Shown: one piece after another, positions 585-62,471 of the stretch
Numbering within the stretch: position 1 is the first letter of the stretch
How the letters are laid out: each line of letters begins with the position of its first letter
Assembly: GCA_900770945.1 (NCBI GenBank)
Contig: CAAGME010000037.1
Span: 78,336-142,335, forward strand
Length of the DNA stretch: 64,000 nucleotides
Direction: 5' to 3'
Origin: Clostridia bacterium
Lineage (GTDB): Bacteria; Bacillota; Clostridia; Christensenellales; Borkfalkiaceae
The notes under the pieces: generated by a model
The model's input: the letters and a program-made list of their open reading frames with translations, nothing else
Databases searched by the model: none
What the model was told of the DNA's origin: nothing
Made by a program: the position numbers and the translations under genes

Positions 585-700
585 GAAAATATGCGTGCGC
601 TGCACGCACGATATTTGCGCAAAAGGCGCAAACGATATGCCTTACGGCTCGATATTTGCCTATCGGCAATCGATATTCGCGCAAGCGCGAGAGGTTTTTA
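585..700. repeat. Array of five different perfect mini-palindromes (stems 3-7 bp, loops 3-5 nt) separated by a fixed CGATAT(T) hexamer
   Basis: Plus strand reads tgcgtgc-gct-gcacgca CGATATT ttgcgc-aaaag-gcgcaa ACGATAT gcc-ttac-ggc TCGATATT ttgcc-tatc-ggcaa TCGATATT cgcgc-aag-gcgcg agaggttttt. A near-consensus sigma-70-like promoter (TTGCCC-17-TATTAT, 507-535) points into it on the plus strand. Confidence 0.5.
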
Positions 701-998
701 CAAGGACGAATTGAAAGTTGAAAGATAACCGCCAAAAACTTTTAACTTTAACCTTTCAACTTCCAATTAAAAAAATCCCCTCATCCACCGCCGACGCGAC
801 GGCGGTCCCCCTTCTCCACAAAGCTCGGCAAAGCCGAGCGGGCGAAGGTCGGTATGGGTGACGAACCACCGCGGCGTAACGGTCTGCTTTTACGCAAAGC
901 CTGCCGATTTGTGGCTCTGCGGGCGAAGGTCGGTGTACGATTTCAACTTTTCGGTCACAAAAAAAAAGACCCTTGCGGCTCTTTTTAATCGTATTATT

Positions 999-4086: not shown

Positions 4087-7000
4087 TTAAATCTTTTTTA
4101 CGCCGACCGTCGCTTTTTCGCCGTTGACGTCAAGTTCCTTGACGAAGCCTTGCGGCTCGGCATTCTCGTAAGTTTCCGCAAGAACGGCTTTCTTTATGCC
4201 GTCTTTACGCGTTTCGAACGTTTTTAAAACTTCGCCGTCCGCCTTATAAGTCACGGCTATTCTGTCGGTCACGACAAAGCCGGCTTCCTTGCGCATGTTC
4301 TGTATTTTGGAGATGATTTCACGCTCTATTCCTTCATAAATAAGTTCGGGCGTGAGCGTTACGTCGAGAACGACGGTGTTGCCGTTTTCGCTTGCCGAAA
4401 CGTAACCTTCCTTGCTTTCGGTGGAAACGAGCAAATCGTCCTCGGTGAGTTCTACTACTTTGTCGTCGAAAGTTATCTTGTAAACTTCGCCTCTTCTGAC
4501 CGTTTTTACGACTTCGGAAGCGTCGCAAGTTTCAAAATACGCTCTTATCTTACCCAAAAGCGCGCCGTACTTGGGTCCGAGCGTTTTGAGCTGCGGCTTT
4601 ATCTTATACGAAATAAAGTCGGTAGCGTCCGTTAAAACTTCAAATTCTTTTACGTTGAGTTCGCCCTGCGCTATCTCGTAAAATTCGCCCGCAAGCGGTT
4701 TGCCGCCGCCCACCGAGAAGTAAAGTTTTTGCAGCGGTTGACGGTTTTTTATCTGCGAAGCGTTTCTCGCCGCTCTGCCGAGGACTACTATATCTTCGAC
4801 TTCTTCCATATCGGATTCAAGCTCGGTATCGATATATTTTTCGTCCGCCGTCGGGAAAGCGCAAAGATGTACCGATTCGGGCGCGTCTTTGAAAAACTCC
4901 GGCACGAGGTTCAGATAAATGCTTTCGGCGATGAACGGCGTGAACGGAGCCGTGAGTTTTGCAAAAGTTACGAGAGTGGTGTAAAGGGTGGTGTAAGCCG
5001 CCTTTTTGTCTTCCGTCATTCCTTCGCCCCAGTATCTCTCGCGCGAACGGCGGATATACCAGTTGGAAAGCTCGTCCACGAAGCTCTGCATAAGCCTTGC
5101 CGCCTCGAAAGTCTTGTACTCGGAAAGATATCCGTCCACCGCCTTAACGAGCGAATTAAGCTTAGACAAAAGCCATTTATCCATAATGGTAAGTTTGCAG
5201 TCGTCAAGCGTGTACTTTGACGGGTCGTATTTGTCTATTTCGGCATAAAGCACGAAGAATGCGTAAGCGTTCCATAGCGTACCCATGTACTTTGCCTGAC
5301 ATTCGCTGACGGCTTTCTCGTAAAATCTCGACGGAAGCCAGGGAGCCGAAGAAGTATAGAAATACCACCTTACGGCGTCCGCGCCCTGTTTGTTCAAAAC
5401 GGTCCACGGGTCGACTACATTGCCGAGGTGTTTTGACATTTTCAAACCTTTTTCGTCGTTGACGTGTCCCAAAACTATGCAGTTTTTGAACGCCGCTTTG
5501 CCGAAAAGCAAGGTGGAAATGGTCAAAAGCACGTAGAACCAGCCCCTCGTCTGGTCGATTGCCTCGCTGATAAAGTCCGCGGGGAAGTGCTTTTCGAAAA
5601 GTTCTTTGTTTTCGAACGGATAGTGGAACTGCGCAAAAGGCATGGAGCCCGAATCGAACCAGCAGTCGATTACTTCCTTTACCCTCTTCATTTTGCCGCC
5701 GCAATGGGGGCAGGTCATAGTCAGATTGTCGAGGAACGGGCGGTGAAGCTCTACGTCCTCTTTTAAGCCGCATTTTTCTTTTAATTCCGCGCGGCTACCG
5801 ACAACGTGGTACTTGCCGCAATCGGGGCAGACCCACACGGGAAGCGGCGTTCCCCAGTATCTCTCGCGCGAAAGACCCCAGTCTACGACGTTTTCGAGGA
5901 AGTTACCCATTCTGCCCGTTTTTATTGTCTCGGGCATCCAGTTGACGGAATCGTTTGATTTTAAGAGTTGTTCTTTTACCGCCGTCGTTTTTACGAACCA
6001 GCTCGAACGCGCGTAGTAGAGGAGCGGAGTGCCGCAACGCCAGCAGTGCGGATAGGAGTGTTCGTAAAGCATATCCTTGAAAAGAACGTTTCTTTCTTTC
6101 AATTCTTTTATAATAAGTTTGTCCGCGTCCTTAACGAACATGCCTTTATAAAGCGTTACTTCGTCCTTAAATCTGCCGCGGTCGTCTACCATCTGAACGA
6201 ACGGAAGATTGTATTTTTGACCGACTCTGCCGTCGTCCACGCCGAACGCCGGGGCGATATGGACTATGCCCGTGCCGTCGGTAAGCGTGACGTAATCGTC
6301 GCAAGTGACGAAAAACGCCTTTTCGCGGAATGAGCCGAGCGCGCAGTCGTACATAGGCTCGTATTCGGTGTACTCGTAGTCCGCGCCTTTCTTTACGCTC
6401 TTTACTTCGTAAGTTCCCTCTTCGAAAAGGGTCGGGATAAGGGCTTGGGCGAGAATGTACGTTTCGCCGCTCGATACTATTTCCGCATAATCCTCTTTTG
6501 CGTTCATACAGAGCGCGACGTTAGAAGGAAGCGTCCAAGGCGTCGTTGTCCAGACAAGAAAATACTTGTCTTCGCCTTTAAGCTTAAACTTGACGAAAAC
6601 AGATTTTTCCTTTACGTCCTTATACCCTTGCGCTACTTCGTGACTTGCGAGCGCGGTGCCGCAACGCGGGCAGTACGGAACGATTTTATAACCCTTATAT
6701 AATAAGCCCTTTTTGTCGATTTCCTTTAAAGCCCACCAGACGGACTCGATATAATCGTCATGGTAGGTAACGTACGGATGTTCCATATCCACCCAGTACG
6801 CGAGCCTTTCGCTCATTTCTTTCCATTCGTTGGAATATTTCCAGACGGATTTTTTGCATTCTTCGATGAACGGTTCTATTCCGTACTTTTCGATATCCTG
6901 CTTGCCGTCAAGTCCGAGTTTCTTTTCGATTTCAAGCTCCACGGGAAGCCCGTGCGTGTCCCAACCGGCTTTGCGGAGAACGTGCATGCCCTTCATCGTT

Positions 7001-7829: not shown

Positions 7830-8152
7830 TACTGCGCTAAGCGGGGAGATAGCGGTGCCCTGTACCAGCAATCCGCTACAGCTGGGCTGAAGGTCCCCCG
7901 AGGCGGCGCGCATGGAAGGCAGGTTTCGGTAAGGAGCGTTGATATTAAGGTCTTATGCAACGGGCGGTCGCGAACCGCGTCAGGATAGGGATATAGCAGC
8001 GCTAAACGATTTTTGCCCGTGTGCCATAAGGAAGCTTTGAAGGAGCCGCCTGTCGGAATATCGCTTCGGTGTTCGCCGTCGACGGGGAATGCGCAGTATT
8101 TTTGAATATTTTTCCGCCGTGGAGGCATTCACCCCCACGGCGGTTTTTTTGT
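7830..8152 (+). ncRNA. ffs: Long (Bacillus-type, Alu-domain-containing) signal recognition particle RNA (scRNA)
   Basis: GCGCUAAGCGGGGAGAUAGCGGUGCCCUGUACCAGCAAUCCGCU aligns almost base-for-base with the 5-prime Alu domain of B. subtilis scRNA (GUGCUAAGCGGGGAGGUAGCGGUGCCCUGUACCUGCAAUCCGCU). Domain-IV-like GUCAGG…AGCAGC is present. Promoter TTGCTT-17-TAAAAT at 7796-7824. Rho-independent terminator ccgccgtgg…ccacggcgg plus T7 at 8118-8152. No downstream plus-strand CDS. Confidence 0.8.
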
Positions 8153-24836: not shown

Positions 24837-25856
24837 TTATTCTTGCGGTTTTACTTCTTCGTTGTTTTCCGGCATCAGTTTTTCTCTGATTTCTTTGTCA
24901 AGGCGTTCGAAAACTTCCGGGTTGGAAGCAAGATATTCTTTCGCCTTATCTCTGCCTTGCGCAATCTTGTCGCCGTTAATCGCGAACCACGAGCCGCTCT
25001 TGTCGATAAGCCCGAGTTCCACGCCCAAATCAAGCACGCAACCGGTGTTGGATATACCGCGACCGTAGATAATGTCGAATTCGGCGGTACGGAACGGAGG
25101 GGCAAGCTTGTTCTTGACGATTTTTGCTTTCGTTCTGTTACCTATCATGCCCGAAGAATCTTTGATGGCGTCGGCTTTTCTGACGTCTATACGAATGCTC
25201 GAATAGAATTTTAACGCTTTTCCGCCCGTCGTCGTTTCGGGGTTGCCGAACATAACGCCGACTTTTTCGCGAAGCTGGTTAATGAATATCACGCAAGTTT
25301 TACTCTTGTTTGTGATTGCCGTGAGCTTTCTTAAAGCCTGGCTCATAAGGCGGGCTTGCAAACCGACGTGATTGTCGCCCATATCGCCCTCTATTTCCGC
25401 CTTAGGCGTGAGAGCCGCTACCGAGTCGATAACGATAAGGTCAACCGCGCCGCTGCGGACTAAGCTGTCGGTGATATCGAGAGCTTGTTCGCCCGTGTCC
25501 GGCTGGGAAACGTAGAGATTGTCGAGGTCGACGCCGAGGTTTGCGGCATAAGAAGGGTCGAGCGCGTGTTCCGCGTCTATAAACGCAGCAATACCGCCCG
25601 CTTTTTGCGTTTCGGCTATAACGTGAAGCGCGACCGTGGTTTTACCGGAAGATTCCGGTCCGTAAATTTCGATAATTCTGCCGCGGGGCAAGCCGCCGAT
25701 ACCGAGCGCAGCGTCGAGAGTAATACAGCCCGTGGAGATAACTTCCACGCCCATATCTTTCGCTTCGTCGCCGAGCTTCATGATTGCGCCCTTACCGTAC
25801 TGTTTTTCTATCTGACCGAGTACCTGGTCAAGAGCTTTTTTCTTGTTTTCTTCCAT
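24837..25856 (-). CDS. recA: Recombinase A
   Basis: GPESSGKTT Walker A and RecA L1/L2 loop regions; 339 aa. Confidence 0.97.
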
Positions 25857-25926
25857 TGTTCCCTCCGAAGTATGGTTTTGTTATTGTTTTATGTTTTCGG
25901 TTTGTTATCGTTTGCGTTTTAACGCG

Positions 25927-26312
25927 AATATCGATTGCTCGCTAATGAGTTGAAAATTGAAAATTACGGTCGAAATAAATATATAAAAAGTCAAATCCAA
26001 ATCTTTCAACTTTCATCTTTCAACTTTAATCTACGGCACTGCCGTAGCGGCGCAGGCGCGTTGTTTGCCCCGAAGCCGTAGAGTGCGTGCATGCGGCGCA
26101 ACAGGGCGATGAGTGTCGACGGGCGCATACTAAGCGTATGTAACCGAGACCGAAGAGCCACGTAGCGACGCAGGCGCGTAGCTTTTTCCGAAGCCGTAGA
26201 GTGCGTGCATGCGGCGCAACAGGGCGATGAGTGTCGACGGGCGCATACTATGCGTATGTAACCGAGACCGAAGAGCCGCGTAGCGGCGCAGGCGCACGCT
26301 ATACGGCTTCGA
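25927..26312. repeat. Intergenic repeat element in the recA leader: AT-rich TTGAAA inverted-repeat module plus a 118-bp GC-rich unit in 2.2 tandem copies
   Basis: Tandem units begin at 26044, 26162 and 26280 (period 118 bp, ~95% identical). Core …agagtgcgtgcatgcggcgcaacagggcgatgagtgtcgacgggcgcatacta… Distal end gcacgctatacggc. Proximal module gagttgaaaattgaaaatt…ctttcaactttcatctttcaacttt. Confidence 0.8.
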
Positions 26313-27344
26313 CTAAGCGGACTCTAAAATATCCTTTAACGCTACGAAAATCGCCGTATTCGCCGCTTTCTTGATTACATCTTCTCGGTCTCCCGAAAAT
26401 TTGTATTTGTAAACTTTTACGTTTTTATCCACGGAAACGCCGATGAAGCATAAGCCGTCCGTATCCGCCTTTTCCTTGCCGCCCGCGTAACCGGTTATGG
26501 TTATCGCAACGTTTGCAAAGCCGAAGTCGGTAATGCCCTTTGCCATTTCGTACGCTACGGGCGCGCTGACTACGCCGTTTTCCTTAATTGTTTGCTCGCT
26601 CACGGAAAGCCTGCCGATTTTCGAGCGCGTATCGTAAGTAATAAAGCCCTCGTAAAATATTTCGCTTGCGCCTTTTACGCTCACGATGTTTGCGGCTATT
26701 CTTCCGCCCGTCATCGATTCGGCGGTGGAAACGATTTTTCCGCGGAGCTTTGCCGCCTGGTAAAATCTTTCGTAAAGCGATGTGTCGTCTTCGGCGTAAA
26801 GCTCTTGTCTAAAAGCCCTTATAAAGTTTTTCACTGCGTCGTCCACAATCATTTTAGGCGTTGAATCGCTGTAAAAAACCGTTACTTTAACGTCGTCGTC
26901 AATTACTATATAATCGAAGAAAACCCCGCTATAAAGCGATGTAATGGCTTTTATGGTTTCTTTGAGCCGACTTTCGTTCGCGCCGAAAAGCTTAAACGTA
27001 AGCGTGCCGACGTTCTTTTTCAAAACATTTTTTACTTCCGAGGCAATGTCCGTGTTTTCGCCGAGAACGACGAGCGGATATTTGCCCTTGAAAAGGTTTT
27101 CGTCCGTCTGCTTGAAACCGTTATCGACAAGCGTTTTTACAAAATCTTTTTCCTTGTCGAATCCCGAAAGAAAACATATATCGCATTTTTCGCTTAAAAC
27201 GGACGGAAGCTCTTTAGTAGAAGTAACTATCGAAACGCGGTCTGCAAACAAGCCCGTGGCGCGTATCTTTTCGATTATGTTTTCCACCGCTTTAAGATCC
27301 GAGCTTTTGCGCCTTTCCGAAAGGTATGCAAGATGCGTTTTCAT
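26313..27344 (-). CDS. cinA: CinA-family protein (C-terminal CinA/PncC-like domain; divergent N-terminal domain)
   Basis: C-terminal half TAESMTGGRIAANI…GASEIFYEGFITYD…ANVAITITGYAGG matches CinA_C. The cinA-recA arrangement is the Bacillus-type operon. The N-terminal 170 aa lack the canonical MocF GGLGPT motif. Confidence 0.7.
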   Translation of the reverse strand: MKTHLAYLSERRKSSDLKAVENIIEKIRATGLFADRVSIVTSTKELPSVLSEKCDICFLSGFDKEKDFVKTLVDNGFKQTDENLFKGKYPLVVLGENTDIASEVKNVLKKNVGTLTFKLFGANESRLKETIKAITSLYSGVFFDYIVIDDDVKVTVFYSDSTPKMIVDDAVKNFIRAFRQELYAEDDTSLYERFYQAAKLRGKIVSTAESMTGGRIAANIVSVKGASEIFYEGFITYDTRSKIGRLSVSEQTIKENGVVSAPVAYEMAKGITDFGFANVAITITGYAGGKEKADTDGLCFIGVSVDKNVKVYKYKFSGDREDVIKKAANTAIFVALKDILESA

Positions 27345-28003
27345 TCCTCGATCGCCTCGTTTTCGATTTTTTCTTCGCCGACGGAAGAATCTTCCTTATG
27401 TTCGACCTTGCTGACCGCTTTGCTTTCGTCAAGAGCATGAGCGTTGATGTAGAAGTAATGAACGGCGGAAACGATCGCCATTATTATCGAAAGAGCAAAG
27501 ATTATAAGCCCTGCGTAATAAACCACGCGGAGCGTGTGTTCGCCCCAGATACCTTCGAAGCCTTCGTAGATTATGAGAATAAAAATCGATATATCCTGGA
27601 GCATCGTCTTTGTTTTGCCGAGCTTATCCGCCGCCATGACGTAACCTTTAGCCGCGGCGACCATTCTTAAACATGATATAAGGATTTCCCTTGCGATGAC
27701 GACTATCGTACAGATACCGCCCAACATGGAATACGGCGAAAAAACGCCCGTATCAACCATTAAAACGAGTGCAGAAAGGACCAGAACCTTATCGGCGGTC
27801 GAATCGAGGAATTTGCCTAAGTCCGTAACGAGATTATACTTTCTCGCAATGTAACCGTCGAGAAAATCCGTGAACGCCGCAAATGCGAATATAGCGGCGG
27901 CAACGATAAAATGCGCGGGGAATTCCCAATAGAATGCCGCAACGAAAAACGGAATAAGCGCAAGTCTTAAAATAGAGAGTTTGTTCGGTAAGTTAAGTTT
28001 CAT
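27341..28003 (-). CDS. pgsA: CDP-diacylglycerol--glycerol-3-phosphate 3-phosphatidyltransferase
   Basis: CDP-alcohol phosphatidyltransferase motif region DFLDGYIARK…TDLGKFLDSTADK; multiple TM helices. Confidence 0.85.
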   Translation of the reverse strand: MKLNLPNKLSILRLALIPFFVAAFYWEFPAHFIVAAAIFAFAAFTDFLDGYIARKYNLVTDLGKFLDSTADKVLVLSALVLMVDTGVFSPYSMLGGICTIVVIAREILISCLRMVAAAKGYVMAADKLGKTKTMLQDISIFILIIYEGFEGIWGEHTLRVVYYAGLIIFALSIIMAIVSAVHYFYINAHALDESKAVSKVEHKEDSSVGEEKIENEAIEE

Positions 28004-29321
28004 TTTCTATTTCTCCGTACAAGTCGTAAGAGGTAGCGGAAATTATTTTTACTTTATACGTTTCGCCTTCGTTTATAACGCCGTCGGATCTCAAATAAAC
28101 TTTTCCGTCTATATCCGGCGCGTTGAAGTAGGCTCGCCCGTAAAATAATTGTTTGTCGTAATCCAAGCCGTCGCACACGACGTCGAAAGTCTTGCCGACG
28201 AGAGAAGAAGTTATTTCTTCGACGATTGCTTGCTGAACGGCGTAAAGTCGTTTTACGCGCTGTTTTTTAACCGATTCCTTTATCTGCCCTTCTATCTTGT
28301 ATGCGGGCGTGTCCTTTTCCCGCGAATAGGCGAAAAAACCGGCGTTCATAAGCTTTGCTTCTCTTAAAAAGTTTTCAAGAGTGATAACGTCCTCTTCCGT
28401 TTCGGTCGGAAAGCCTGCGATAAAGGTCGAGCGAATGACAAGCGACGGAATTTCCTCTTTTAGCTTATTCACGAGCGCGACGTAACTTGCATAACTTCCT
28501 TTTCTGTTCATCAGTTTTAAAATTCTGTCGGAAGCGTGTTGAAGCGGAATGTCAAGGTATTTTATAACTTTTTCGTTATCCCTTATCTCCGCGATAAGCT
28601 TATCGTCGATAAGCTCGGGATAACAGTACATTAAGCGAATATGTTTGACCGTTTCGAGCGCGGAAAGCGCGCGGATAAGCTCAACGAGCCTTATTTCTCC
28701 GTACAAATCCTCGCCGTAACGAGTGGTATCCTGCGCAACGAGAATAAGCTCTTCCACCTCGCCCAAACCCTTTGCCTCTTCTACTAAGCTCTCTATCGGG
28801 CGGGAAACGAATTTTCCTCGAATTTTAGGGATAAGGCAGTATGTACAGTGGTTGTTGCAACCGTCGGAAATTTTAAGATAAGCAAAATGCCCGGGGGTGG
28901 TGACTATTCTCGAACAGCCGAGTTCTTTGCCTTTGCCGACGAGGTTTAGTCTTTTGCCTTTGTAAACTTCGTCGATAGCCTGCGTGATGAGCGAGCCGTC
29001 CTTAGTGCCTAAAAACGCGTCCACCTCGGTAAAATCGTCGAACATGTCGGCGACGAATTTTTGCGGAAGGCAACCCGTCATTATTATTTTTTCAAGGTTG
29101 CCGTCTTGCTTGTACGGCAAATACTCGAAAACGGTGTTTATCGCCTCTTTTCGTGCGGAGCCTAAAAACGCGCAGGTGTTCACTATCAGCACGTTTGCGT
29201 CCTCTATCGAAGAAGTTATGTCGTAGTGCTTTGCGACCTCGTATAAAAGTTTTTCGCCGTCAACTCTGTTCTTGTCGCAACCGAGCGACACGAGTCCGAC
29301 CTTTTTTCTGTGTGTAGTCAT
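27993..29321 (-). CDS. rimO: Ribosomal protein S12 methylthiotransferase (MiaB-like radical SAM)
   Basis: Start reset to MTTHRKKVGLVSLGCDKN at 29321. Radical SAM CNNHCTYC motif; TRAM C-terminal domain. The track's N-terminal 29 aa (FQFSIFNFQF) are translation of the AT-rich repeat. Confidence 0.85.
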   Translation of the reverse strand: MTTHRKKVGLVSLGCDKNRVDGEKLLYEVAKHYDITSSIEDANVLIVNTCAFLGSARKEAINTVFEYLPYKQDGNLEKIIMTGCLPQKFVADMFDDFTEVDAFLGTKDGSLITQAIDEVYKGKRLNLVGKGKELGCSRIVTTPGHFAYLKISDGCNNHCTYCLIPKIRGKFVSRPIESLVEEAKGLGEVEELILVAQDTTRYGEDLYGEIRLVELIRALSALETVKHIRLMYCYPELIDDKLIAEIRDNEKVIKYLDIPLQHASDRILKLMNRKGSYASYVALVNKLKEEIPSLVIRSTFIAGFPTETEEDVITLENFLREAKLMNAGFFAYSREKDTPAYKIEGQIKESVKKQRVKRLYAVQQAIVEEITSSLVGKTFDVVCDGLDYDKQLFYGRAYFNAPDIDGKVYLRSDGVINEGETYKVKIISATSYDLYGEIENET

Positions 29322-29324
29322 ATG

Positions 29325-29734
29325 TTTGAATTGAAAATTGAAAATGGAAAATTGAAAGATGTGGATATAAAAATATATCTTACAATATTTCTCGTCCTTA
29401 ATTTTCACCTTTTAACTTATAGTTGCAAGCCTTTTTAGGCTTCAGAGTGCGTAGCATTGCCGCAACAAGGGCTGTGAGTGTCGAAGGGCGCAATAAAAGC
29501 TGCAAGCTTTTTGCCCTTGCAAGCCTTTTTAGGCTTCAGAGTGCGTAGCATTGCCGCAACAGGGCTGTGAGCTATCAAGCTGTCGGTTTGCTATACTTGC
29601 AAGCCTTTTTAAGGCGGAGAGTGGTGCAGTTTGGCACAGCTGGTGACGGCGACCGACAGGCGCGTACTCTAACGTACGTAACTGAGGGCGCCGGCGCACG
29701 CAGTGGCAAAATGCGCCGCTATACGCCTTAAAAA
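29325..29734. repeat. Second copy of the intergenic repeat family (rimO leader): TTGAAA module plus ~90-bp GC-rich subrepeats
   Basis: ttgaattgaaaattgaaaatggaaaattgaaag…ttcaccttttaactt, followed by gcaagcctttttaggcttcagagtgcgtagcattgccgcaacagggctgtgag at 29427 and 29518, ending …gcgccgctatacgcc. Confidence 0.8.
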
Positions 29735-32700
29735 TCAAAAATCTTCGGTGAAGTCGCCGTAAAGCTCCTCATATTGTTCGCGAGTTATTAAGACGGTGCG
29801 GTCTTTATTGTCTAAGGAAGCGGAAACGTACTTCATTTTCGCCATCCATTCGACGATAGTCGCGGCGCGGTTGTAACCGATAGCGAGCTTAGTTCTTAAT
29901 GCGGAGTTGGAAACGCGGCGTTGGTCGATTACTATGCGCAAAGCCTTTTTCATAACCTCGTCAACTTCGCCGCCGGGGGCTTGCGGCGCGGAATCTTCGT
30001 CGTCGCCGCCCTCGTCCGCCGTAGCGTAAGCGTTGATAAGTTCGAGAACCTTATTGTCATAGTAACTCTTGTTGTTCTTTCTTATATAGTCGAGAACGGA
30101 ACGGATTTCGAGGTTGTCGACAAACGCGCCCTGAGCGCGCTGTAAAAAGCCCTCGTCGCTCGTTTTGTAGAAGCAATCGCCCTTGCAAACGAGCTTTTCC
30201 GCGCCGTTTTCATCGATAACGACTCGGCTGTCCATAGCGGTTGCCGTTTTAAAGCAGATACGCGACGGAACGTTGGTTTTGATAGAACCGGAGATGACGT
30301 TGACCGACGGGCGTTGGGTGGCAAGTATAAGCGAAATACCCGCGGCACGCGCCTTTTGCGCGATTCTGCCGATATAGTTTTCAATCTTCTTTTTGTTCTT
30401 TTCGTCCGCCATTATAAGGTCGGCAAACTCGTCTATCAGGATAACGATATACGGCACGCGCTTAACCTTGGTCGTGTCTATCATGGCGTTGTATTCTCCG
30501 ATATCCTTGCAACCGTTTTCGGCGAGGAACTGATATCTTGTTTCCATTTCGCCAACCGCCCATTCGAGAACGGCGAGCGCGCGCTTGTCTATACCGATTA
30601 TGTCGTTGAACACAAGGTGCGGTATGCCCTTGTACATATTGAATTCAACGACCTTAGGGTCGATGATGATAAGGCGCATTTCCTCGGGAGAATAGCGGTA
30701 CAAAAGGCTGATTAAAAGCGAGCTTAAACATACGGACTTACCCATACCGGTTGCGCCGCTCACCAAAAGGTGCGGCATTCTGGCGAGGTCCAAAACAACC
30801 GATTTGCCGAGAATGTTTTTGCCTAAAACGAACTGCAAGCCTTTCTTCTTTAAAGTCTTGTATTCGGGGGAAGAAAGCACGGACTTTAAGCCGACGATTG
30901 AAACGACTTTGTTTGCAACTTCTATACCGATAAGCGATTCGTTGGGAACGTTGTACATTCTAAGGTCCGAAACCTTTAAACGGAACGCCAAATCGCCTTT
31001 TGCGTGGAATACATCCTTCGGGCTTACGTCGTCCGGGATAGCAATGTCGTAACGAGTAACGGAAGGTCCCGCGATTATGTTTTCGACTGTGACGTCAATG
31101 CCCGTAGACTGTTTGATAACCCTGACAATCGTTTCGGCGTTGGCTTTGCGTTTTTCGTTTTCGACAAGCAAAGCCTGTTGGTCTGCGCCGTATTCTTTCA
31201 ACAAGTCGAGCGGCGGAGCCTTGTACCTATAGTTGACGGGCATGTCATCTATGGAAAGCGAGCCGTCGTCCGGGATTGTATATTTAGGTTTAGCCGAAGC
31301 AGCGACGCCGTTTGCGACGTTCGTTGCCGCCGGGCGCGACACAGCACCGGGTTGAACGGGTCTTGCGGGAGAAGCCGAAGCAGCCGTCCCCATCGGCGAA
31401 GTTTCCACTCTCGGCGTAAAAGCCGGTTCCTTTTTTTCTTCCGTCGGCGCGCTTTCCGTGAAAGAAGCTCTGCTTGTCGCGACATGCGTATCCGCCCTTA
31501 AAGCGGAAGTATCGCGAGCAGACGAAGAAAAGCTCGGCGTGACGGGCTTTCTCGTAGAAGAAAAATCGTCCTCCGTCGTTTTAATTTCCGTGGTTTCGCG
31601 CTCAACGGTGCGAGCCGTTCTCGTTTCGCCTGCTCTCTCGTCCGCTGCGGGGCGAGTGAAATCGCGACGAGTATCGGTATCGAAAGAAGATGTGCGGGAA
31701 TACGAGGAAGCTTCGGGCGTTCTTTTCGCCGCACCCTCTCTCGTTCTGTCGTAAACGCCGTAATCGGCGGAACGCGCGTCGGACTCTTTTCCGTAATTAT
31801 CTCGCGCCGTTCTGTCCACTACGGGTACCCCGCGGGAAGTTTCGTTGACGACGTAAGCCGAGCGGCGTGAAAAATCGATATCTTCGCTCTCTCGCGAACG
31901 GTCCTTGGTCGTGTCGCCGAAAATGGGAGAAACGCCTATGTTGTCAAGGTTGACTTTACCGACGGGCTTGCCGTCGCGAATAACGTCCGAAACACCCGCG
32001 CCGCTCCTGTCCAATGCCGATTTAGGCGGCGTGTAAGACGAAGCTTCGCCTTTTTTGCCCGTGTAATCTTCGGAATAACTCCTTTTCACGTCCGGGCGAA
32101 CGGGTTCGCGGCTCGACAAACCGTTTTGCGACGGATTCTTAAATTCAAATCTGCCGTCGAAAACGCTGAGCCTCGACGGAACGCCGCTTGCGGCTTCCCT
32201 CTTGGTTTTAAACGTAAACGGGGATTCCTCGTCTAAAAAGTAGCCGTGAGGAGGAACTTCTTTCTCCTCGTTTTTCGTGGTTTTTGCGACCTTTTCGCCT
32301 TTGGCTTCCTCTGCGGCGTATTTTCCCGTAAACGAGTCTTTATCGGCTTTTTGCTTTTCGGGCGCGGGGATTTTGGGCTTGGTTTCCTTTTTTTCGAAAT
32401 TGAATTTGCCTCTGAACAAAATCGCGACGACAACGAGTAAAGCTATCGAAAATATAACGAACGCACCGGCGTACGAAGCGATTTTCGCAACGGGAGCGGT
32501 AAGCAGAGTAGCTATCGCGCCGCCCGGGGTAGTCGTCGAAAAACCGCCTTCGCCCTTTGCAAAGGAGGACGACATATGTTCGCCGACGGACAAGGAATTG
32601 TCAAAGCCGACGGCAAGATGGACTATGAGAAAAATAATGGCGACGGCAAGCGAGATTAAAAACGACGTGAGCCGTTTATCTTCGGGAATCGCGCTGCGCC

Positions 32701-40539: not shown

Positions 40540-42555
40540 TTACTTAAATAAATCGTATAATTTTTCGTATTCCGCGGCGGATTTTTTCCAGCTGAAATCG
40601 GTCGTCATGGCACATTTTACGATTTTGTTCCATTCTTCCTTGTTGCCGTAAGTATAAATGGCGTCTTTCAAAACGTAAAGCATTTCATGCGCGTTGTAGT
40701 TTGAAAAAGCAAACCCGTTGCCGCCTTTTCTGTCGGTATTGTAAGCGGTTATACTGTCGTTCAAACCGCCCGTTCTTCTGACAACAGGAACGGTGCCGTA
40801 ACGGCAAGCTATCATCTGCGAAAGCCCGCAAGGCTCTTGCTTTGACGGCATTAAGAATATATCCGCGCCCGAGTAAATTTTAGACGAAAGGTCCTTGTTG
40901 TAAGCTATTATCGTCTTGCATTTTCCTCTGTAATTATCGGCGATATAACCAAAATAACCTTCGTAATAAGCTTCGCCCTTACCGAGTATAACGACCTGAA
41001 CGTTTTCCGCCAAAAGTTCTTCGAGAATGCATTTTACGAGGTCAAGCCCCTTGTGCGCGACGAGGCGGGAAATTATCGCGATGACGGGAACGTCCGCCCT
41101 TTCCGGGAGACCGAGCATTTTTTGAAGTTCGGCTTTGCAGACGGCTTTGCCGCTCATATCGCTCACCGAGTAGTTTTTAAAAAGAGCTTTATCCGTTTCG
41201 GGGTTGTAAACTTCTTCGCTTATGCCGTTCAAAATACCTATTATCTTGCCCGCGTTGTCGTTAATCGCGTACTGAAGTCCGTGCGCAAAATATTCGTTTT
41301 TAATCTCTTCCGCATAAGTTTTAGAAACCGTGGTGACGTAATCGGAAAGCTGAATCGCACCCTTCATGAGGTTCAAACAGCCGTCGTAATCGAGCGCGGG
41401 TTCGACGTCATAGGGAAGCCCGAACAAATCTTCCAAAATTTCCTTGCCGTACTTTCCCTGATATTCTATATTATGAATAGTGAAAATCGCTCTGATATGG
41501 TCGAAGCCCCAACGGTTAGCGTATATGGTTTTAAGGTATATAACGGCGAGCGCGGTCTGCCAATCGTGGCAATGCATGACGTCCGGATACCAATTCATAT
41601 ACTGCATAGCTTCAAGCACCGCGCGCGAGAAGAAAGCAAACCTTTCGCCGTCGTCATAGTGACCGTAAAGAGTCGGGCGACGGAAGTAATATTCGTTGTC
41701 GATGAAAAGATATGTTACGCCCTTTCTCTTATAAGAGAAAAGCCCGCAATACTGATTTCTCCAACCGACGGGAACGTTGAAGTTGCCGATATACGTAAGG
41801 TGATTTCTGTACCCCTCGTCCATTGTTCCGTAAAGGGGCAAAATAACCCTGACGTCGTAGTTGCCGCGTTCGGAAATGGCTAAGGGGAGAGACCCGATAA
41901 CGTCCGCAAGTCCGCCGGTGCCGACAAAGGGATTACATTCGGAAGCTACAAACAAAAGCGAACGCTTGCGAACAACTTCCACCTCTATATCCTTTTGTTG
42001 ACTTTCGGCTTGTTCTTTATTCTCTTCGGGAACGATTTTTTCCGCTTCCTCTTCTTTTAATTGCTTTTCGGCAAGCTTTTCTTCTATCTTTTCGTTTTCC
42101 TTTTCGGCTTTTTCAACGGCTTTTTCTTCGAGTTTTACCTCTTCCTTATCCGTCTTTTCAAGCTTCTTTTGAACCTTTTTCGCTACCTTTTCGGCTGCTT
42201 TTTTCTGTTTTTCGTCCGTCTTTTCAACAGTCTTTTTCTGCTTTTCGGGCGCAAGAACGACCGTGGCTTCTTCCTTTTTTGCCGCTTCTTTCTTTTGAAC
42301 TTTTTCTTCGGTTTTTACCTTAACTTCAGCCGCTTTTTCAATCTTTTTTTCTTCCTTTTTAACGGCAGCCGCTTCTGAATTCTTTGCTTTTTTGACTTCT
42401 TCTTTAACTTCTTCTACCGCTTTCTCTGTTGCCTTTTCGACCGCTTTAACGGTCTTTTCTGCCTGTTTTTCGTCCTTTTTGACTTGTTTTGCTTTTTTAA
42501 TAGACATTTTTTTACCTCTCTTTGGCTTTTTTGGAGCCGTATTTTTTTTATGCAA
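40540..42555 (-). CDS. glgA: Glycogen synthase with a ~190-aa Lys/Glu-rich low-complexity N-terminal extension
   Basis: Core begins RSLLFVASECNPFVGTGGLADV (the GlgA KTGGL motif). In-frame upstream are 190 aa of K/E/A/V low complexity starting at ATG 42555. An alternative GTG at ~41988 preceded by AAGGA would give a canonical-length GlgA. Confidence 0.85.
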   Translation of the reverse strand: MHKKNTAPKKPKRGKKMSIKKAKQVKKDEKQAEKTVKAVEKATEKAVEEVKEEVKKAKNSEAAAVKKEEKKIEKAAEVKVKTEEKVQKKEAAKKEEATVVLAPEKQKKTVEKTDEKQKKAAEKVAKKVQKKLEKTDKEEVKLEEKAVEKAEKENEKIEEKLAEKQLKEEEAEKIVPEENKEQAESQQKDIEVEVVRKRSLLFVASECNPFVGTGGLADVIGSLPLAISERGNYDVRVILPLYGTMDEGYRNHLTYIGNFNVPVGWRNQYCGLFSYKRKGVTYLFIDNEYYFRRPTLYGHYDDGERFAFFSRAVLEAMQYMNWYPDVMHCHDWQTALAVIYLKTIYANRWGFDHIRAIFTIHNIEYQGKYGKEILEDLFGLPYDVEPALDYDGCLNLMKGAIQLSDYVTTVSKTYAEEIKNEYFAHGLQYAINDNAGKIIGILNGISEEVYNPETDKALFKNYSVSDMSGKAVCKAELQKMLGLPERADVPVIAIISRLVAHKGLDLVKCILEELLAENVQVVILGKGEAYYEGYFGYIADNYRGKCKTIIAYNKDLSSKIYSGADIFLMPSKQEPCGLSQMIACRYGTVPVVRRTGGLNDSITAYNTDRKGGNGFAFSNYNAHEMLYVLKDAIYTYGNKEEWNKIVKCAMTTDFSWKKSAAEYEKLYDLFK

Positions 42556-43789: not shown

Positions 43790-43934
43790 GCAAGCGAGTT
43801 GAAAATTGAAAATGGAAAATTGAAAATTGCGGATACAAATATTATATAAAAAATTCGTCCTTAATTTTTAACTTTCAACTTTCACCTTTCAACTTACGCC
43901 GCGTAAGCGCATTGCCGCTATACGCACTCAAAGC
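43790..43934. repeat. Third copy of the intergenic repeat family (glgD leader), AT-rich TTGAAA inverted-repeat module
   Basis: gagttgaaaattgaaaatggaaaattgaaaattgcgg…tatataaaaaattcgtccttaatttttaactttcaactttcacctttcaactt, then …ttgccgctatacgcact. Confidence 0.75.
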
Positions 43935-45149: not shown

Positions 45150-45295
45150 TCTTTGCATTTCTCGTAGCTTGCTGTCAGAGCCTTGAGCGCGGAGAGTGGT
45201 GCATAGACGGGCAACAGGTGACAGCGAACGACAGGCGCGTACTAAAACGTACGTAACTAAAGCGGCGTTTAAGCACGTAGCCCGTATATGGGCCG
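45150..45295. repeat. Fourth copy of the intergenic repeat family (glgC leader), GC-rich module only
   Basis: gcggagagtggtgcatagacgggcaacaggtgacagcgaacgacaggcgcgtactaaaacgtacgtaact…gggccgctatacacg is near-identical to 29619-29727. Confidence 0.75.
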
Positions 45296-47200
45296 CTATA
45301 CACGTTCAAGATACATGAAAGATAAGGGTACGAGGTTAACTTTTATACTTTTCTTTTTGCCGTGCATAGGTTTGCGGTTGGCTACAAATTCCTTTTTGCG
45401 GAAGGTGCCGTCGCCGCCGTAAAACTTGGAGTCGGAACTGAATCTGACGACATATTGTCTGCCGTCCACGCCTACGCGGTAATCGCGCAAGGTAAGCCCC
45501 GAAAAGTTGATTATGCACAAAAGTTCTTTTCCGCTTACGCCCCTGCGGACGAAAGCCAAAACGTTGTTGGTCGAATCGTCGGCGATAGTCCATTCGAACC
45601 CGTCCCACGATTTTTCTATCGACCAAAGCTCGTCGTTATCGCGATAAAACGCATTGAGTTCTCTGAAAAATCTATTGGCGAGCGCGTTTTCTTTACGTTT
45701 TAAAAGCTCGAATTCAAGACCTTTTGCAAAATTCCATTCGTTGTACTGGTCGAATTCCTGCCCCATGAACATAAGTTTTTTGCCGGGGTGAGCCATCATA
45801 TATCCCATGAACGCGCGTACGCCCGCATGCTGCATTTTTTCGTCGCCCGGCATTTTGTTGAAAAGCGAACGTTTGCCGTAAACAACTTCGTCATGCGAAA
45901 CGGGGAGAATAAAGTTTTCGCTGAAAGCATACATCATGGAAAAAGTGAGCTTATTGTGGCAACCGCCTCTGAACAGGGGGTCGGTGGAAACGTAAGAAAG
46001 TACGTCGTTCATCCAACCCATGTTCCATTTAAAGTTGAAGCCCAAGCCGCCGATTGAAGCGGGCATCGTAACCATCGGGAAAGCCGTGGATTCTTCGGCA
46101 ATCATTAGCGCGTACGGATACTGAGCGAAAACCGCGCTGTTCAACTGTTGCAAAAACTCAACCGCTTCGAGGTTGATGTTCGTACCCTTTTCGTTGGGCT
46201 TCCATTCGCCATTTTTTCTGTCGTAATCGAGATAGAGCATGGAAGCGACCGCGTCCACCCTTATGCCGTCGATGCCGTAAACGTCGAAGTAGAAAAGCGC
46301 AGACGAAATAAGGAAAGACCTTACTTCCTTTTTCCCGAAGTCGAAAACACGCGTACCCCACGATTTGTGTTCCTTTTTAAACTCATCGGCATACTCGTAC
46401 AAACAGGTCCCGTCAAACTCGTAAAGACCGTGTTCGTCTTTCGGGAAGTGCGCGGGTACCCAATCGAGAATAACGCCTATTCCGCTGTTATGGAAAGCGT
46501 CTATAAGGCTTTTAAAGTCCTCGGGAGTGCCGAATCGCGAAGTCACGCCGAAGTACCCCGTCACCTGATAACCCCACGAGCCGTCGTAAGGATATTCCGA
46601 AACGGGCATAAATTCGACATGCGTATAGTTCATGCGCTTAACGTAAGGAACAAGTTCTCTTTCGAGTTCTTTATACGAAAGATACGAGCCGTCCTCTTTC
46701 CTTTTCCAGGAAGCGAGGTTGACTTCGTAAATATTGACGGGCGAAGCGTAAGGGGTGTAATTTTTGCGCTGTTCCTCGTACCAGACCGCCTTGCTCGTAA
46801 GCTTTTCTACGTCGTAAAGTTTTGAAGCCGTTGCGGGCGCGGTTTCCGCATGGTATGCGTAAGGGTCAGCTTTAAGGACCGTCTTTTTGCCGCAAGTGAC
46901 GGCGTACTTATAGTTGTCATACTTGCGCAAGCCTTTAACGGATATTTCCCAGGTTTCCCCGTCCTCCGTTTTGTGAAGCGGGTTCTTTCCGACACCCCAG
47001 TCGTTAAAGTCCCCGACTAAGCTTACGGCGTCGGCATGCGGCGCCCAAACCCTGAAAACGACGCAACTTTCCTTGCGGTCGAAGTGCGCGCCGAAATACT
47101 TATAAGCGCGATAGTTTGTACCCTGATGAAAAAGGTAAAGCGGCAAATCGGGACTTTCCGCGGAGGGATTATTCATTTTGAGAGTGCGCTTTGAAGCCAT
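45296..47200 (-). CDS. glgB: 1,4-alpha-glucan branching enzyme
   Basis: GH13 regions ILDWVPAHF, GIDGIRVDAVASMLY, AEESTA. Start set to MASKR at 47200 (GGAG RBS, 5-nt spacer). Confidence 0.9.
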   Translation of the reverse strand: MASKRTLKMNNPSAESPDLPLYLFHQGTNYRAYKYFGAHFDRKESCVVFRVWAPHADAVSLVGDFNDWGVGKNPLHKTEDGETWEISVKGLRKYDNYKYAVTCGKKTVLKADPYAYHAETAPATASKLYDVEKLTSKAVWYEEQRKNYTPYASPVNIYEVNLASWKRKEDGSYLSYKELERELVPYVKRMNYTHVEFMPVSEYPYDGSWGYQVTGYFGVTSRFGTPEDFKSLIDAFHNSGIGVILDWVPAHFPKDEHGLYEFDGTCLYEYADEFKKEHKSWGTRVFDFGKKEVRSFLISSALFYFDVYGIDGIRVDAVASMLYLDYDRKNGEWKPNEKGTNINLEAVEFLQQLNSAVFAQYPYALMIAEESTAFPMVTMPASIGGLGFNFKWNMGWMNDVLSYVSTDPLFRGGCHNKLTFSMMYAFSENFILPVSHDEVVYGKRSLFNKMPGDEKMQHAGVRAFMGYMMAHPGKKLMFMGQEFDQYNEWNFAKGLEFELLKRKENALANRFFRELNAFYRDNDELWSIEKSWDGFEWTIADDSTNNVLAFVRRGVSGKELLCIINFSGLTLRDYRVGVDGRQYVVRFSSDSKFYGGDGTFRKKEFVANRKPMHGKKKSIKVNLVPLSFMYLERV

Positions 47201-60188: not shown

Positions 60189-61505
60189 TTAAAATTTGAA
60201 AGGCATCTTTTTGCCGTTCTTCATTTGCTTCATCATCTGCTTGGATTGTTCAAAGCCTTTTAGAAGCTTGTTTATTTCCTGCAAAGAAGTTCCGCTGCCT
60301 TTTGCTATGCGCATTTTGCGCGAATAGTTCAATATCGACGGGTTTTTGCGTTCCTTTTCCGTCATCGACTGTATGATTGCCTTGGTGCGGTACAGCGCCT
60401 TTTCGTCGATATCGCTTTCCTTTATTTTTAGCTTACCCATACCGGGGAGCATACCGAGTATTCCGCCCGCGCCGCCCATCTTTTTAACCATATCGATTTG
60501 CTCGATATAGTCGTTCAAATCAAAGCTGTTTTCGCGGAGCTTTTTCTCCATTTTTTTGGCTTGTTCTTCGGTGACGGCTTCTTGCGCCTTTTCGATAAGC
60601 GAAAGCACGTCCCCCATACCGAGTATTCGGTTAGCCATTCTGTCGGGGTAGAACGGTTCAAGGTCGGTGAGTTTTTCGCCCACGCCGCAGAACTTAATGG
60701 GTTTGCCCGTTACGGCTTTTACCGAAAGGCACGCGCCGCCCCTCGTGTCGCCGTCAAGCTTGGTTAAGATAACGCCCGTAATTTCAAGGCGGCGGTTGAA
60801 TTCTTCCGCAACGTTTACCGCGACCTGACCGGTCATGGAGTCAATCGTGAGCAAAATTTCCGTCGGCTCGACTGCGGCTTTGATGTTTTCAAGCTCCTGC
60901 ATGAGTGCGTCGTCGATTTCAAGTCTGCCCGCGGTATCGATTATAACCGTATCGAAGCCGAATTTTTTTGCGTGTTCGATAGCGGCTTTCGCGGTGATAA
61001 CGGGGTTTTGCGTACCCATTTCAAAAACTTCCGCGCCCGCGTTTTTGCCAACGACTTGCAGCTGTTTTATCGCTGCAGGGCGGTATATATCGCCCGCAAC
61101 CAAAAGCGGCTTTTTGCCTTGCTTTTTGAGATAGACGGCGAGCTTTCCGCAAAGCGTCGTTTTGCCCGCGCCCTGAAGCCCGCACATCATAATGACCGTC
61201 GGTAGCTTAGGCGAAACTTCTAACTTCGCATTCGTGCCGCCCATAAGCGCGACAAGTTCGTCGTTTACTATTTTGATAACTTGTTGAGCGGGGCTTAAAC
61301 TTTTTAAAATTTCTTGCCCCTTAGCCTTTTCGGAAACGGTGTTCACAAAGTCCTTTACGACCTTGATGTTGACATCCGCCTCTAAGAGCGCGATACGGAT
61401 TTCGCGCATTGCTTGCTTTATTTCAAGCTCGGTAAGCTTGCCGCGGTTGGTAAGCTTTGAAAAGGCGTGATTGATTTTTTCGCCGAGTGATGAAAAAAAT
61501 GCCAT
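60189..61505 (-). CDS. ffh: Signal recognition particle protein Ffh
   Basis: NG domain GLQGAGKTT, DTAGR, and a Met-rich M domain; 438 aa. Confidence 0.95.
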   Translation of the reverse strand: MAFFSSLGEKINHAFSKLTNRGKLTELEIKQAMREIRIALLEADVNIKVVKDFVNTVSEKAKGQEILKSLSPAQQVIKIVNDELVALMGGTNAKLEVSPKLPTVIMMCGLQGAGKTTLCGKLAVYLKKQGKKPLLVAGDIYRPAAIKQLQVVGKNAGAEVFEMGTQNPVITAKAAIEHAKKFGFDTVIIDTAGRLEIDDALMQELENIKAAVEPTEILLTIDSMTGQVAVNVAEEFNRRLEITGVILTKLDGDTRGGACLSVKAVTGKPIKFCGVGEKLTDLEPFYPDRMANRILGMGDVLSLIEKAQEAVTEEQAKKMEKKLRENSFDLNDYIEQIDMVKKMGGAGGILGMLPGMGKLKIKESDIDEKALYRTKAIIQSMTEKERKNPSILNYSRKMRIAKGSGTSLQEINKLLKGFEQSKQMMKQMKNGKKMPFKF

Positions 61506-61910: not shown

Positions 61911-62471
61911 TTAAACGGGTTTTCGCTTTTTTGTTTGATTTTTGGAACTTGAAAGGCTTTCCAACTCGTCGGGAGTCGGGTCGACTTTAAAATGCGCTGA
62001 GAATATATATAATCTTTGCGATTGATAAATCATTCTTGCAACTCTTACCCTGGTTACCAACTCATCCATAGGCACGCGAAGTCCTTTTTGATACCATTCA
62101 TAAGGCTCGCTTAGATTGTAAAGATATTTAGAATCGATAGGACTGTATCCGTCAAAACTCACTGCTTTTCTATCATTTACGGCACTTTCAAAGTCGTCGC
62201 TTTTCGTGGCAGAAAAGTCCTCAAAAAACTCATCGTCACGTTCGGTTGTTTGGAAAACATAGTATTCCGTGCCGTCACCGTCAAACCCGACTGTTGTTCC
62301 TCTATTATGATATATGCATTCCCATTCTTCCGGAATATTTATTTTTAATTCTTTATTAGCTTTCGAGCGATAATCTATATTTCGATGACTACAACGATAA
62401 GAACAAAAGCCACAAAGAGAGCAAACGGCAACAACTAATACAATAATAGTTACTATCTTACCTTTTTTCAT
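61911..62471 (-). CDS. Membrane-anchored hypothetical protein, paralog A (signal-anchor with Cys-rich juxtamembrane segment)
   Basis: MKKGKIVTIIVLVVAVCSLCGFCSYRCSH… start at the ATG at 62471 with AAAGGAGAGG RBS. Shares N- and C-termini (…HFKVDPTPDELESLSSS) with the adjacent paralog. Confidence 0.6.
   Translation of the reverse strand: MKKGKIVTIIVLVVAVCSLCGFCSYRCSHRNIDYRSKANKELKINIPEEWECIYHNRGTTVGFDGDGTEYYVFQTTERDDEFFEDFSATKSDDFESAVNDRKAVSFDGYSPIDSKYLYNLSEPYEWYQKGLRVPMDELVTRVRVARMIYQSQRLYIFSAHFKVDPTPDELESLSSSKNQTKKRKPV

Follow-up and report, generated by a model that had tools for sequence, protein, structure and literature searches.

The window analysed here is a stretch of 64,000 nucleotides from a Clostridia bacterium (contig CAAGME010000037.1, positions 78,336 to 142,335 of the forward strand), and it carries small intergenic repeats in the spacers of two gene strings, ftsK-rimO-pgsA-cinA-recA and glgB-glgC-glgD. 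All of these genes lie on the minus strand and their names were confirmed by NCBIfam, including recA, rimO, glgD, and glgC as given in the initial annotation of this DNA. That annotation described a multi-copy modular intergenic family at five places, and we found repeat sequence at all five by Tandem Repeats Finder (TRF), self-BLAST, pattern search, and a covariance model (R1). In total, the window contains four full copies of a GC-rich module, referred to here as G units, together with two half units, one stub, and four AT-rich heptad inverted repeats, referred to here as AT modules. Two full G units lie between cinA and recA (cinA|recA), one in ftsK|rimO, and one in glgB|glgC, and all window units share one orientation, scored here as minus strand, between co-directional minus-strand genes. 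Their location upstream of minus-strand genes, reported previously, is observed but carries little weight, since nearly all window genes are on that strand. They had also been placed in gene leaders; we found instead that they occupy spacers of co-directional genes in which the GC part adjoins the upstream stop codon. Both parts of what had been described as one element are present, but our data indicate that the GC and AT parts form two separable families, each with its own distribution.

The repeat loci are tied to one another by self-BLAST and repeat finding within the window. A pattern for the central hairpin of the G unit matched four times, compared to 0.00 matches expected in shuffled sequence, and no extra copy was found in the window even when three mismatches were allowed. 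Covariance model R1 recovered the four full copies with 43.9-48.9 bits, all on the plus strand; the count of four full units is based on the pattern search, the mismatch search, and R1. The initial annotation held that each copy ends in a terminal motif. That motif, GCCGCTATAC, is exact only at 29715, 43914, and 45292, with a variant (GCACGCTATAC) at recA, and, allowing one mismatch, the 10-mer by itself does not exceed chance (six found, 3.5 expected).

At cinA|recA, TRF reported a 118-bp unit repeated 2.1 times at 26043-26295 with 93% matching. The tandem 118-bp arrangement described earlier therefore stands, although the GC part is a long palindrome and not merely a set of subrepeats. G unit a, the first 118-bp tandem copy of the array, occupies 26070-26187 (TRF period 118; pattern match at 26122-26148), and its central hairpin lies at 26108-26158 (R1 47.8 bits, E 4.8e-12). 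G unit b (26188-26312; R1 47.3 bits) is a complete 125-bp imperfect palindrome, CCGAAGCCGTAGAGTG...CGCTATACGGCTTCGA, whose end lies 1 nt from the stop codon of cinA (26313-26315). Next to the array, at 26031-26059, are a small hairpin (CTACGGCACTGCCGTAG) and a junction repeat (CGTAGCGGCGCAGGCGC), with 26043-26059 matching 26279-26295; the junction repeat is present at every unit boundary and is likely the substrate for unit gain or loss. The AT module at recA (25949-26030; TRF) consists of TTGAAAA / TTTCAAC heptad arms around a TATATA centre. Beside the recA ribosome-binding region, at 25923-25938, lies CGCGAATATCGATTGC, a fragment of a further module (the CGATAT-hairpin or R module) that matches 666-681 on the other strand at 16/16 positions.

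At ftsK|rimO, the AT module (29325-29420) shares 27/27 identity with 43799-43825 and is followed by two apex-less half units (29423-29516 and 29517-29596) that are 98% identical over 56 nt. Each half unit comprises one G-unit arm plus small AAGCC-TTTTT-AGGCTT hairpins, and R1 had no match at 29423-29596; what had been taken for 90-bp units at rimO are therefore half units without the central hairpin. The full G unit here (29604-29734; pattern match, R1 48.9 bits), CCTTTTTAAGGCGGAGAGTGG...CCGCTATACGCCTTAAAAA, ends at the base adjoining the ftsK stop TGA (29735-29737), with its internal GTATAG 11 nt from that stop. The glgD spacer holds the most complete AT module, with four heptads per arm (43796-43895; TRF and folding), and a stub, ACGCCGCGTAAGCGCATTGCCGCTATACGC, that contains the terminal motif only (43896-43927). 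Three compared contigs (referred to here by L numbers), L012, L015, and L017, carry a full G unit at this site. The glgB|glgC spacer of the window strain has a full G unit (45180-45310; pattern match, R1 43.9 bits) without an AT module. TRF reported runs of the TTGAAAA / TTTCAAC heptads in the recA, rimO, and glgD spacers. A shorter copy had been noted at 700-810; it is present as a short AT module at 707-765, with two heptads per arm, no TATA centre, and a 26-nt match to 43870-43895, but the region 600-950 also holds three further repeat modules (R, Q, and P), which self-comparison places around the short AT copy at 590-950.

We found that the G unit is an imperfect palindrome of 125-131 bp that starts 0-15 nt from the upstream stop codon. 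Read in gene direction, a full unit starts GTATAGCG, contains GTTACRTACG-loop-GTAYGCGCC, and ends GCAC(C/GC)ACTCT, and the palindrome extends 8-11 nt beyond these start and end motifs. The outer arms vary by locus yet stay complementary, as seen at rimO (TTTTTAAGGCG/CGCCTTAAAAA), recA (CGAAGCCG/CGGCTTCG), and glgC (CTTGAACGTG/CGCGCTCAAG). The tip reads, on the plus strand, CGAG-GG-GC-GCGYAC-(5-6 nt loop)-GURCGY-AA-CC-GAG. RNAalifold on 12 Christensenellales-type units returned 39 pairs, 28 of which have changes on both sides. No intrinsic-terminator site was found on the minus strand at the units in 25800-29800, and no T run follows the units at recA, rimO, or glgC, which argues against a terminator.

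Some G units contribute coding sequence to the gene upstream. The outer arm of the glgC unit encodes the last four glgB codons (CTT GAA CGT GTA, L-E-R-V), and the glgB stop TAG (45296-45298) is the TAG of the GTATAG motif inside the unit. Likewise, the C-terminal codons and stop of cinA lie in the repeat in other strains and in Christensenella sp. UBA4636 (L023). Across the window (26313-26330), L003, L005, L006, and L023, the CinA C-terminus is variable: some strains run into the repeat and end ...LEAV* at the GTATAG TAG, while in the window the stop falls 14 nt earlier, and in L003 a 14-nt sequence (CGAAGCCGTATAGC) is tandemly duplicated at the cinA end.

The AT module is built differently, from two inverted arms of TTGAAAR heptads around a conserved, TATAAT-like centre. 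The rimO/glgD-type centre is AAGGACGAA...TATATAAT...TGTATCCGC, and the module folds equally on both strands (z about -5.8 for the glgD copy). Heptad count differs between strains in 7-bp steps, with glgC|glgD spacers of 202, 216, or 223 bp. In the relative L057, a G unit followed by an AT module, in the same order, precedes two other genes, and the L057 AT centre presents TTGAAA-18 nt-TATAAT on both strands. We did not find the AT module outside Christensenella-like loci. In L014, about 440 bp of P, Q, and R modules are nested between two AT arms, and therefore the AT-rich centre has served as an insertion site. At rimO the AT module ends 4 nt from the start codon (29319-29321). Separately, rimO has no recognisable Shine-Dalgarno sequence, the last AT heptad standing 4 nt before the ATG (…TTTTCAATTCAAACATATG).

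The proximity of AT modules to start codons (4-90 nt upstream), the likeness of heptad direct repeats to iterated operator sites, and a recA AT core that is nearly invariant between species are what one might expect of a shared 5′ leader, or of a platform for one regulator co-controlling recA, rimO, glgC, and glgD, as had been suggested. We consider this improbable. It is the upstream stop that G units adjoin, not the start codon downstream; the genes share no function, and the same architecture stands before other, unrelated genes in relatives. Furthermore, glgC has a G unit without an AT module, glgD has an AT module with a stub only, and content varies between strains, down to presence or absence of the unit.

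Strain variation at recA was assessed in contigs whose RecA protein is identical to that of the window. Their cinA|recA spacers measure 209, 318, 325, 332, 338, 389, and 456 bp, and the alleles contain zero, one, or two G units, a second unit type, or Q and R modules swapped in for the AT module. Zero-unit alleles (L006 and L010) retain only the small hairpin and junction-repeat part, while L008 carries Q and two R modules in place of the AT module. Contigs with identical GlgC are similarly diverse: the glgB|glgC spacer is 182, 555, or 668 bp, the long forms holding extra modules, and the glgC|glgD spacer is 202, 216, 223, or 304 bp, with a full G unit in L012 where the window has the stub. 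Unit copies are probably gained and lost at the 17-18-bp junction repeat (CGCGCCTGCGCCGCTACG), and in L013 a block has been swapped between unit types.

The P, Q, and R modules travel with the AT and G modules, swapping in and out between strains, and were seen in the window (590-950), in L008 (cinA|recA), and in L012 and L014 (glgB|glgC). The R module is a series of CGATAT hairpins at 600-690 (ATCGATAT-stem-loop). The Q module is GGACCGCCGTCGCGTCGGCGGTGGATGAGGGGAT on the minus strand at 775-815, and the P module comprises GGGCGAAGGTCGGT repeats at 838-853 and 919-934, in the form CCAACCTTCGCCC...GGCTTTGCCGAGC. Most strains have an R-module fragment between the AT module and the recA ribosome-binding site; in L005, L007, and UBA4636 an unrelated sequence (TTGACTTTGTTCGTGCTTTTCTTAAGCAG) replaces it, which makes the upstream control region of recA polymorphic. 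This region showed no clear LexA (Cheo) box.

Beyond these strains, a scan of genome contigs with the end pattern GCACSCACTCT returned the recA locus of Christensenella sp. UBA4636 and one chance match; this pattern is one base too long for rimO-, glgC-, and glgD-type units (3/5 full unit types). A corrected central-hairpin pattern, which matched every full unit in hand before it was used on metagenomes, identified at least 120 loci. The family is therefore not private to this genome. The loci sort into about 20 families; arms of different families have unrelated sequences, and those within a family are complementary. Tip-bearing loci come from human gut, termite gut, and peat soil; the gut hosts are Firmicutes-type by their flanking genes, and a taxon (Christensenella) was assigned to the window species and L023 only. 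On the plus strand, the common tip consists of a variable stem, a GA/GA 2x2 loop, GG/CC, a GC/AA 2x2 loop, and an apex with a 6-bp stem (GCGYAC/GURCGY) and a 5-6-nt loop. In an alignment of 20 family tips, 84.6% of cells were paired compared to 74.2% in shuffles (0/500 reached the observed value), and tip pair 14-39, whose column 14 lies outside the search pattern, is GC in 13 sequences, AU in 7, and broken in none. Model R1 gave 111 matches in 748 kb with nearly all above 40 bits, and therefore copies either carry the tip or lack it.

The peat-soil and human-gut families have sharp ends and discrete unit sizes, 165 bp and 128-129 bp respectively, compared to 125-131 bp in the window. The peat-soil family has units bounded by CTAG...CTAG on contigs of 64% G+C. 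Its 47 hits fall into 46 distinct flank groups, and 20 of the 21 full-ended copies recovered have unrelated flanks (from a reading of the flanks, L058 and L128 appear to be a single locus). It comprises three terminal-repeat subtypes with compensatory changes. Units of the human-gut family are bounded by TA-AAA...TTT-TA and have chimeric ends. In L129 and L038 of this family the left and right ends belong to different subtypes and the outermost stem is unable to pair, and therefore arms recombine as modules. A termite-gut type and others are among the remaining families. Kinship of arms crosses loci, the glgC type being near the L012 glgD type and the rimO type near L057a. Flanking genes, named by reading translated open reading frames (ORFs) and not by family search, are ordinary housekeeping genes (rpoA|rplQ, rpsL|rpsG, dnaK|dnaJ, ruvA|ruvB), and further elements lie in the spacer before minD (itself after an MreB-like gene) and beside metG. 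In another gut lineage, L056 has a cluster of partial elements (6160-6560) that carry another hairpin (CTGTAGGGGCGGATGATATCCGCCCCTACAG) in place of the tip, with GTAG...CTAC as its borders, a feature of repetitive extragenic palindromic (REP) sequences. The outer arms were also considered as duplicated palindromic targets, which is ruled out because similar arms recur at different loci and species.

The 118-bp tandem array, its 17-18-bp junction repeats, and the 7-bp heptad steps in spacer length could be accounted for by purely local duplications, that is, a variable number tandem repeat (VNTR) or minisatellite with no wider family and no structure of consequence. We regard this as highly implausible. 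Unlinked loci 3-19 kb apart share units, compensatory changes are strong, related units occur at other genes in L057, and the tip recurs in the metagenome loci; the outcome that the initial annotation had named as its refutation, duplications without copies elsewhere, was thus not found.

Our data are best explained by a mosaic in which small non-coding interspersed repeats of two or more unrelated families are combined, with a third set (P/Q/R) in other strains. [quoted passage not shown] It is drawn from multicopy units that are sharp-ended in sister families, mosaics, nesting, tandem expansion, presence or absence between strains, and unrelated neighbours. From this we infer mobility in trans, transcription, an effect on mRNA, and promoter activity. 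Spread of the G unit would occur in trans, through an enzyme for which the folded hairpin of the conserved tip is the recognition site. Local reshuffling would then proceed by slippage, unequal recombination, and gene conversion between copies, which we propose to be the origin of the 118-bp array and the strain differences. G units are probably co-transcribed, because they stand right after stop codons inside gene strings, and a co-transcribed unit could influence how the mRNA decays or is processed by forming a hairpin at the 3′ end of the upstream cistron, as REP and BOX do. The AT module would most likely serve as a portable promoter-like cassette before the downstream gene.

A number of observations weigh against the foldback-repeat reading. 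No mobilising enzyme came to light: tblastn with RayT, IS200, and IS608 TnpA found no Y1 transposase in 1.03 Mb of loci plus the window, Pfam returned no transposase among 10 scanned window ORFs of unknown function, no transposase name occurred among 10 flanking genes named by NCBIfam, and no tip hairpin was found beside seven sampled RayT loci from other lineages. Y1 enzymes are the tyrosine HUH transposases of the RAYT/IS200 type. No target-site duplication is visible in the window copies, and a promoter consensus scan flagged only one weak AT-module site (29352-29381). The tip is conserved and the ends are not, the reverse of ordinary MITEs and of REPINs (paired REP sequences); conserved tip with variable ends, near-fixed orientation, and slow divergence make the G unit a misfit to both. 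In addition, the MAG (metagenome-assembled genome) contig CABQEU010000008.1 (L001), compared with window 26043-26312, has recA DNA 100% identical to that of the window yet one 118-bp unit where the window has two. This may reflect either a very recent change or collapse of a tandem repeat during short-read assembly. The unit differences of other strains are not assembly collapse, because their recA is only 98.3-98.6% identical to the window's.

Orientation and folding add to these difficulties. In Firmicutes-type families, the upstream gene is co-oriented with the GTATAG/TAAAA end in 44/47 scorable cases and the downstream gene in 23/32, while the peat family has no clear orientation rule. The sense strand has positive GC skew in 49/55 Firmicutes-type loci; since coding and leading strand coincide there, skew is uninformative on whether orientation is linked to replication or transcription. 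Strand asymmetry is strong, and the strand antisense to the genes folds better. Folding of minus-strand transcripts had been proposed as a check. These transcripts give z -0.89 to -4.67, and the plus strand folds better at ftsK|rimO (29604-29734; z -7.05 versus -4.67, -73.2 versus -56.0 kcal/mol), at cinA|recA unit b (26188-26312; z -6.20 versus -4.23, -69.7 versus -57.5 kcal/mol), and at glgB|glgC (45180-45310; z -5.26 versus -0.89). The plus-strand advantage in the window is 12-17 kcal/mol, with the same trend under DNA parameters, and the antisense strand folds better in 6/7 lineages. Across 18 families, mismatches on the antisense strand are purine-purine in 112 cases versus pyrimidine-pyrimidine in 27, and G.U pairs across families favour the antisense strand 46 to 27 (p = 0.03). 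Alignment A1 gave 56 G.U pairs versus 6 on the other strand, a biased count as its structure was predicted on the favoured strand. Two explanations fit: folding may be required of the antisense strand, as RNA or single-stranded DNA, or selection may act to weaken the mRNA-sense hairpin.

Constraint was evaluated by comparing L003, a strain of the window's species, to Christensenella sp. UBA4636. The recA of the latter species is 90% identical, and fourfold-degenerate sites of recA differ by 34.6% between the two, while the orthologous recA-locus G unit differs by about 9% (counted on the alignment) and the AT-module core at 2 of about 62 positions (about 3%); the sequence from the AT module to the recA ribosome-binding site is unrelated. 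Given this low divergence, the recA-locus units predate the species split, and either selection or conversion from conserved master copies has kept them where they are. An old, constrained unit of this kind is at least as compatible with a host function as with selfish DNA.

These observations support an alternative in which the G unit has a function as a strand-specific RNA, or as single-stranded DNA in folded form, and a conserved host protein binds its purine-rich tip. It could take the form of an antisense RNA from the plus strand, or of an element acting in cis at the upstream cistron's 3′ end, and variation in copy number would then reflect tuning and not parasitism. We treat this alternative as possible but rather doubtful. 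The tip is kept with covariation in about 20 arm families from gut, termite gut, and peat, orientation is fixed to the upstream gene, units lie inside conserved operons, the plus strand has its folding advantage, purine-purine excess, and G.U bias, divergence is low relative to recA fourfold sites, and in this genome the promoter-like AT-module site faces the G units. However, strains with identical flanking proteins lack, double, or replace the unit, neither glgC nor the other lineages have a defined promoter or terminator for an antisense RNA, no AT module was found beyond Christensenella-like loci, and gut-family ends are chimeric and non-complementary. The strand asymmetry is also explicable by selection against an mRNA hairpin that is too stable, and the A1 count shares the bias described above. 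A broader version, in which the units form a cross-habitat class of strand-specific structured elements with a GA-rich tip that docks a widely conserved protein, are kept after stop codons because they are useful, and behave as repeats only secondarily, is to us slightly more tentative still.

Returning to the foldback-repeat reading, we compared the elements to known systems. The REP sequences and bacterial interspersed mosaic elements (BIMEs) of Escherichia coli, and the REPINs with their REP-associated tyrosine transposases (RAYTs) in E. coli and Pseudomonas, are, like G units, imperfect palindromes outside genes, found at the 3′ ends of genes and between the genes of operons. G units further resemble BIMEs in their mosaic combinations of motifs, and both REP systems and G units are long-lived and vertically inherited. 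E. coli REP hairpins have a conserved AA/GC mismatch that is needed by their Y1 transposase, which acts strand-specifically on single-stranded DNA (PMC8266576). The G unit likewise has a conserved 2x2 mismatch, GC/AA where E. coli REP has AA/GC, and its strand asymmetry parallels the strand-specific recognition of REP. In contrast, the hairpin foot of the G-unit family is CGAG, CGAA, or ACAG on the plus strand and CTC on the other strand, not GTAG, which is present elsewhere in some arms but never at the foot. REPINs conserve two inverted REPs of 25-40 nt in their arms (PMC3116915), whereas the G-unit family conserves the tip of a 110-165-nt hairpin and varies the arms. No RAYT gene was found near any copy in the loci searched; Clostridia are among the carriers of group 1 RAYTs (PMC5581495).

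BOX elements of Streptococcus pneumoniae (boxA-boxB(n)-boxC), grouped here with RUP and SPRITE, are similar in having a variable tandem inner module and a predicted stem-loop when transcribed. The G-unit sequence itself is not known to be BOX-like. The likeness is one of architecture, with 0, 1, or 2 tandem 118-bp units between fixed recA flanks, and extends to clusters and nested insertions of different repeat families and to strain-variable copy number. BOX elements are built of modules, the inner one in variable tandem number, and can extend neighbouring genes with codons or stop codons (PMC3049150), as the elements here do. The orientation of BOX mirrors coding bias only, at about 61% (PMC3049150), compared to the 44/47 found for the G-unit family, and BOX-type repeats are reported in streptococci only (PMC3049150), while the tip motif spans very different habitats.

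MITEs of the IS630/Tc1 type (RUP, Correia) are similar in size (100-170 bp, discrete) and in having terminal inverted repeats. IS630 inserts at CTAG and duplicates TA, and the sister families bounded by TA or CTAG resemble this, although these bases may be part of the palindrome rather than a duplication; the CTAG and TA borders are the one hint of IS630-type mobilisation. Correia elements carry promoters, a parallel to the promoter-like role proposed for the AT module. For the window units, neither a TA duplication nor a partner insertion sequence was seen. Mycobacterial interspersed repetitive units (MIRU-VNTR) also form tandem units in operon spacers with fixed orientation, stop/start overlap, and strain-variable number. 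MIRUs are 46-101-bp direct repeats with small ORFs that are restricted to mycobacteria, and they differ from G units in not being long palindromes. Integron attC sites have RYYYAAC...GTTRRRY ends, whereas the ends here are GTATAGCG...CACTCT, TAAAA...TTTTA, or CTAG...CTAG, and the flanking genes are housekeeping genes, not cassette ORFs. As stated in the initial annotation, the array is not a CRISPR: the 118-bp tandem copies are contiguous, and NCBIfam or Pfam assigned no cas gene to any of the 20 window ORFs examined.

Database searches returned no counterpart. At gathering score, Rfam reported in the window only the signal recognition particle (SRP) RNA and nothing at the elements; in 12 loci there were no hits, and nothing overlapped the elements at E <= 5. 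The SRP RNA is of the large bacterial type (7832-8096, 172.6 bits), and the window also encodes ffh (SRP54) at 60189-61505. Plasmid BLAST with one gut-family unit and the window rimO unit, and a scan of IMG/VR viral contigs with the tip pattern, gave no match. A keyword search of the literature turned up no account of this hairpin family, and the motif as a text string retrieved unrelated papers only. By eye, likeness to the hammerhead, hairpin ribozyme, k-turn, and group II domain V, and to the CIRCE, CtsR box, LexA box, CodY box, and ssoA CS-6, was rejected for misfit in spacing or partner sequence.

The part that would be unexpected to a specialist is the tip motif in such different habitats; the architecture resembles BOX, BIME/REP, and MIRU. 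If the family is as it seems, a 30-nt hairpin motif that is absent from the catalogues searched links repeats of human-gut Clostridia, termite gut, and peat soil. Model R1 and the pattern GGCGCRTACN{4,5}YGTAYGYAACYRAR provide a handle for finding the enzyme or protein that recognises it. Unit numbers at recA and glgC could serve as a strain-typing marker for uncultured Christensenella-like gut bacteria, and the elements offer a case for testing why essential operons tolerate palindromic repeats in one orientation only. They also carry a warning for annotation: the repeat supplies C-terminal and stop codons of cinA and glgB, and the arrays may be collapsed in short-read assemblies.

Other features of the window are of separate interest. 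Downstream of glgD, ORF 40540-42555 is probably glgA, its counterpart in L011 having Glyco_transf_5 and Glycos_transf_1 domains; within it, at 42075-42480, a CTTTTTC-rich low-complexity repeat region on the plus strand would encode Lys/Glu-rich repeats on the coding strand. Two tandem paralogous ORFs at 61911-62477 and 62554-63126 (188 and 190 amino acids), which match no Pfam family, share 75-91% DNA identity in several blocks that include their upstream spacers. ORF 999-2369 (456 amino acids) has no NCBIfam or Pfam match; a terminator-like hairpin with a T run comes after it on the minus strand, at 961-990.

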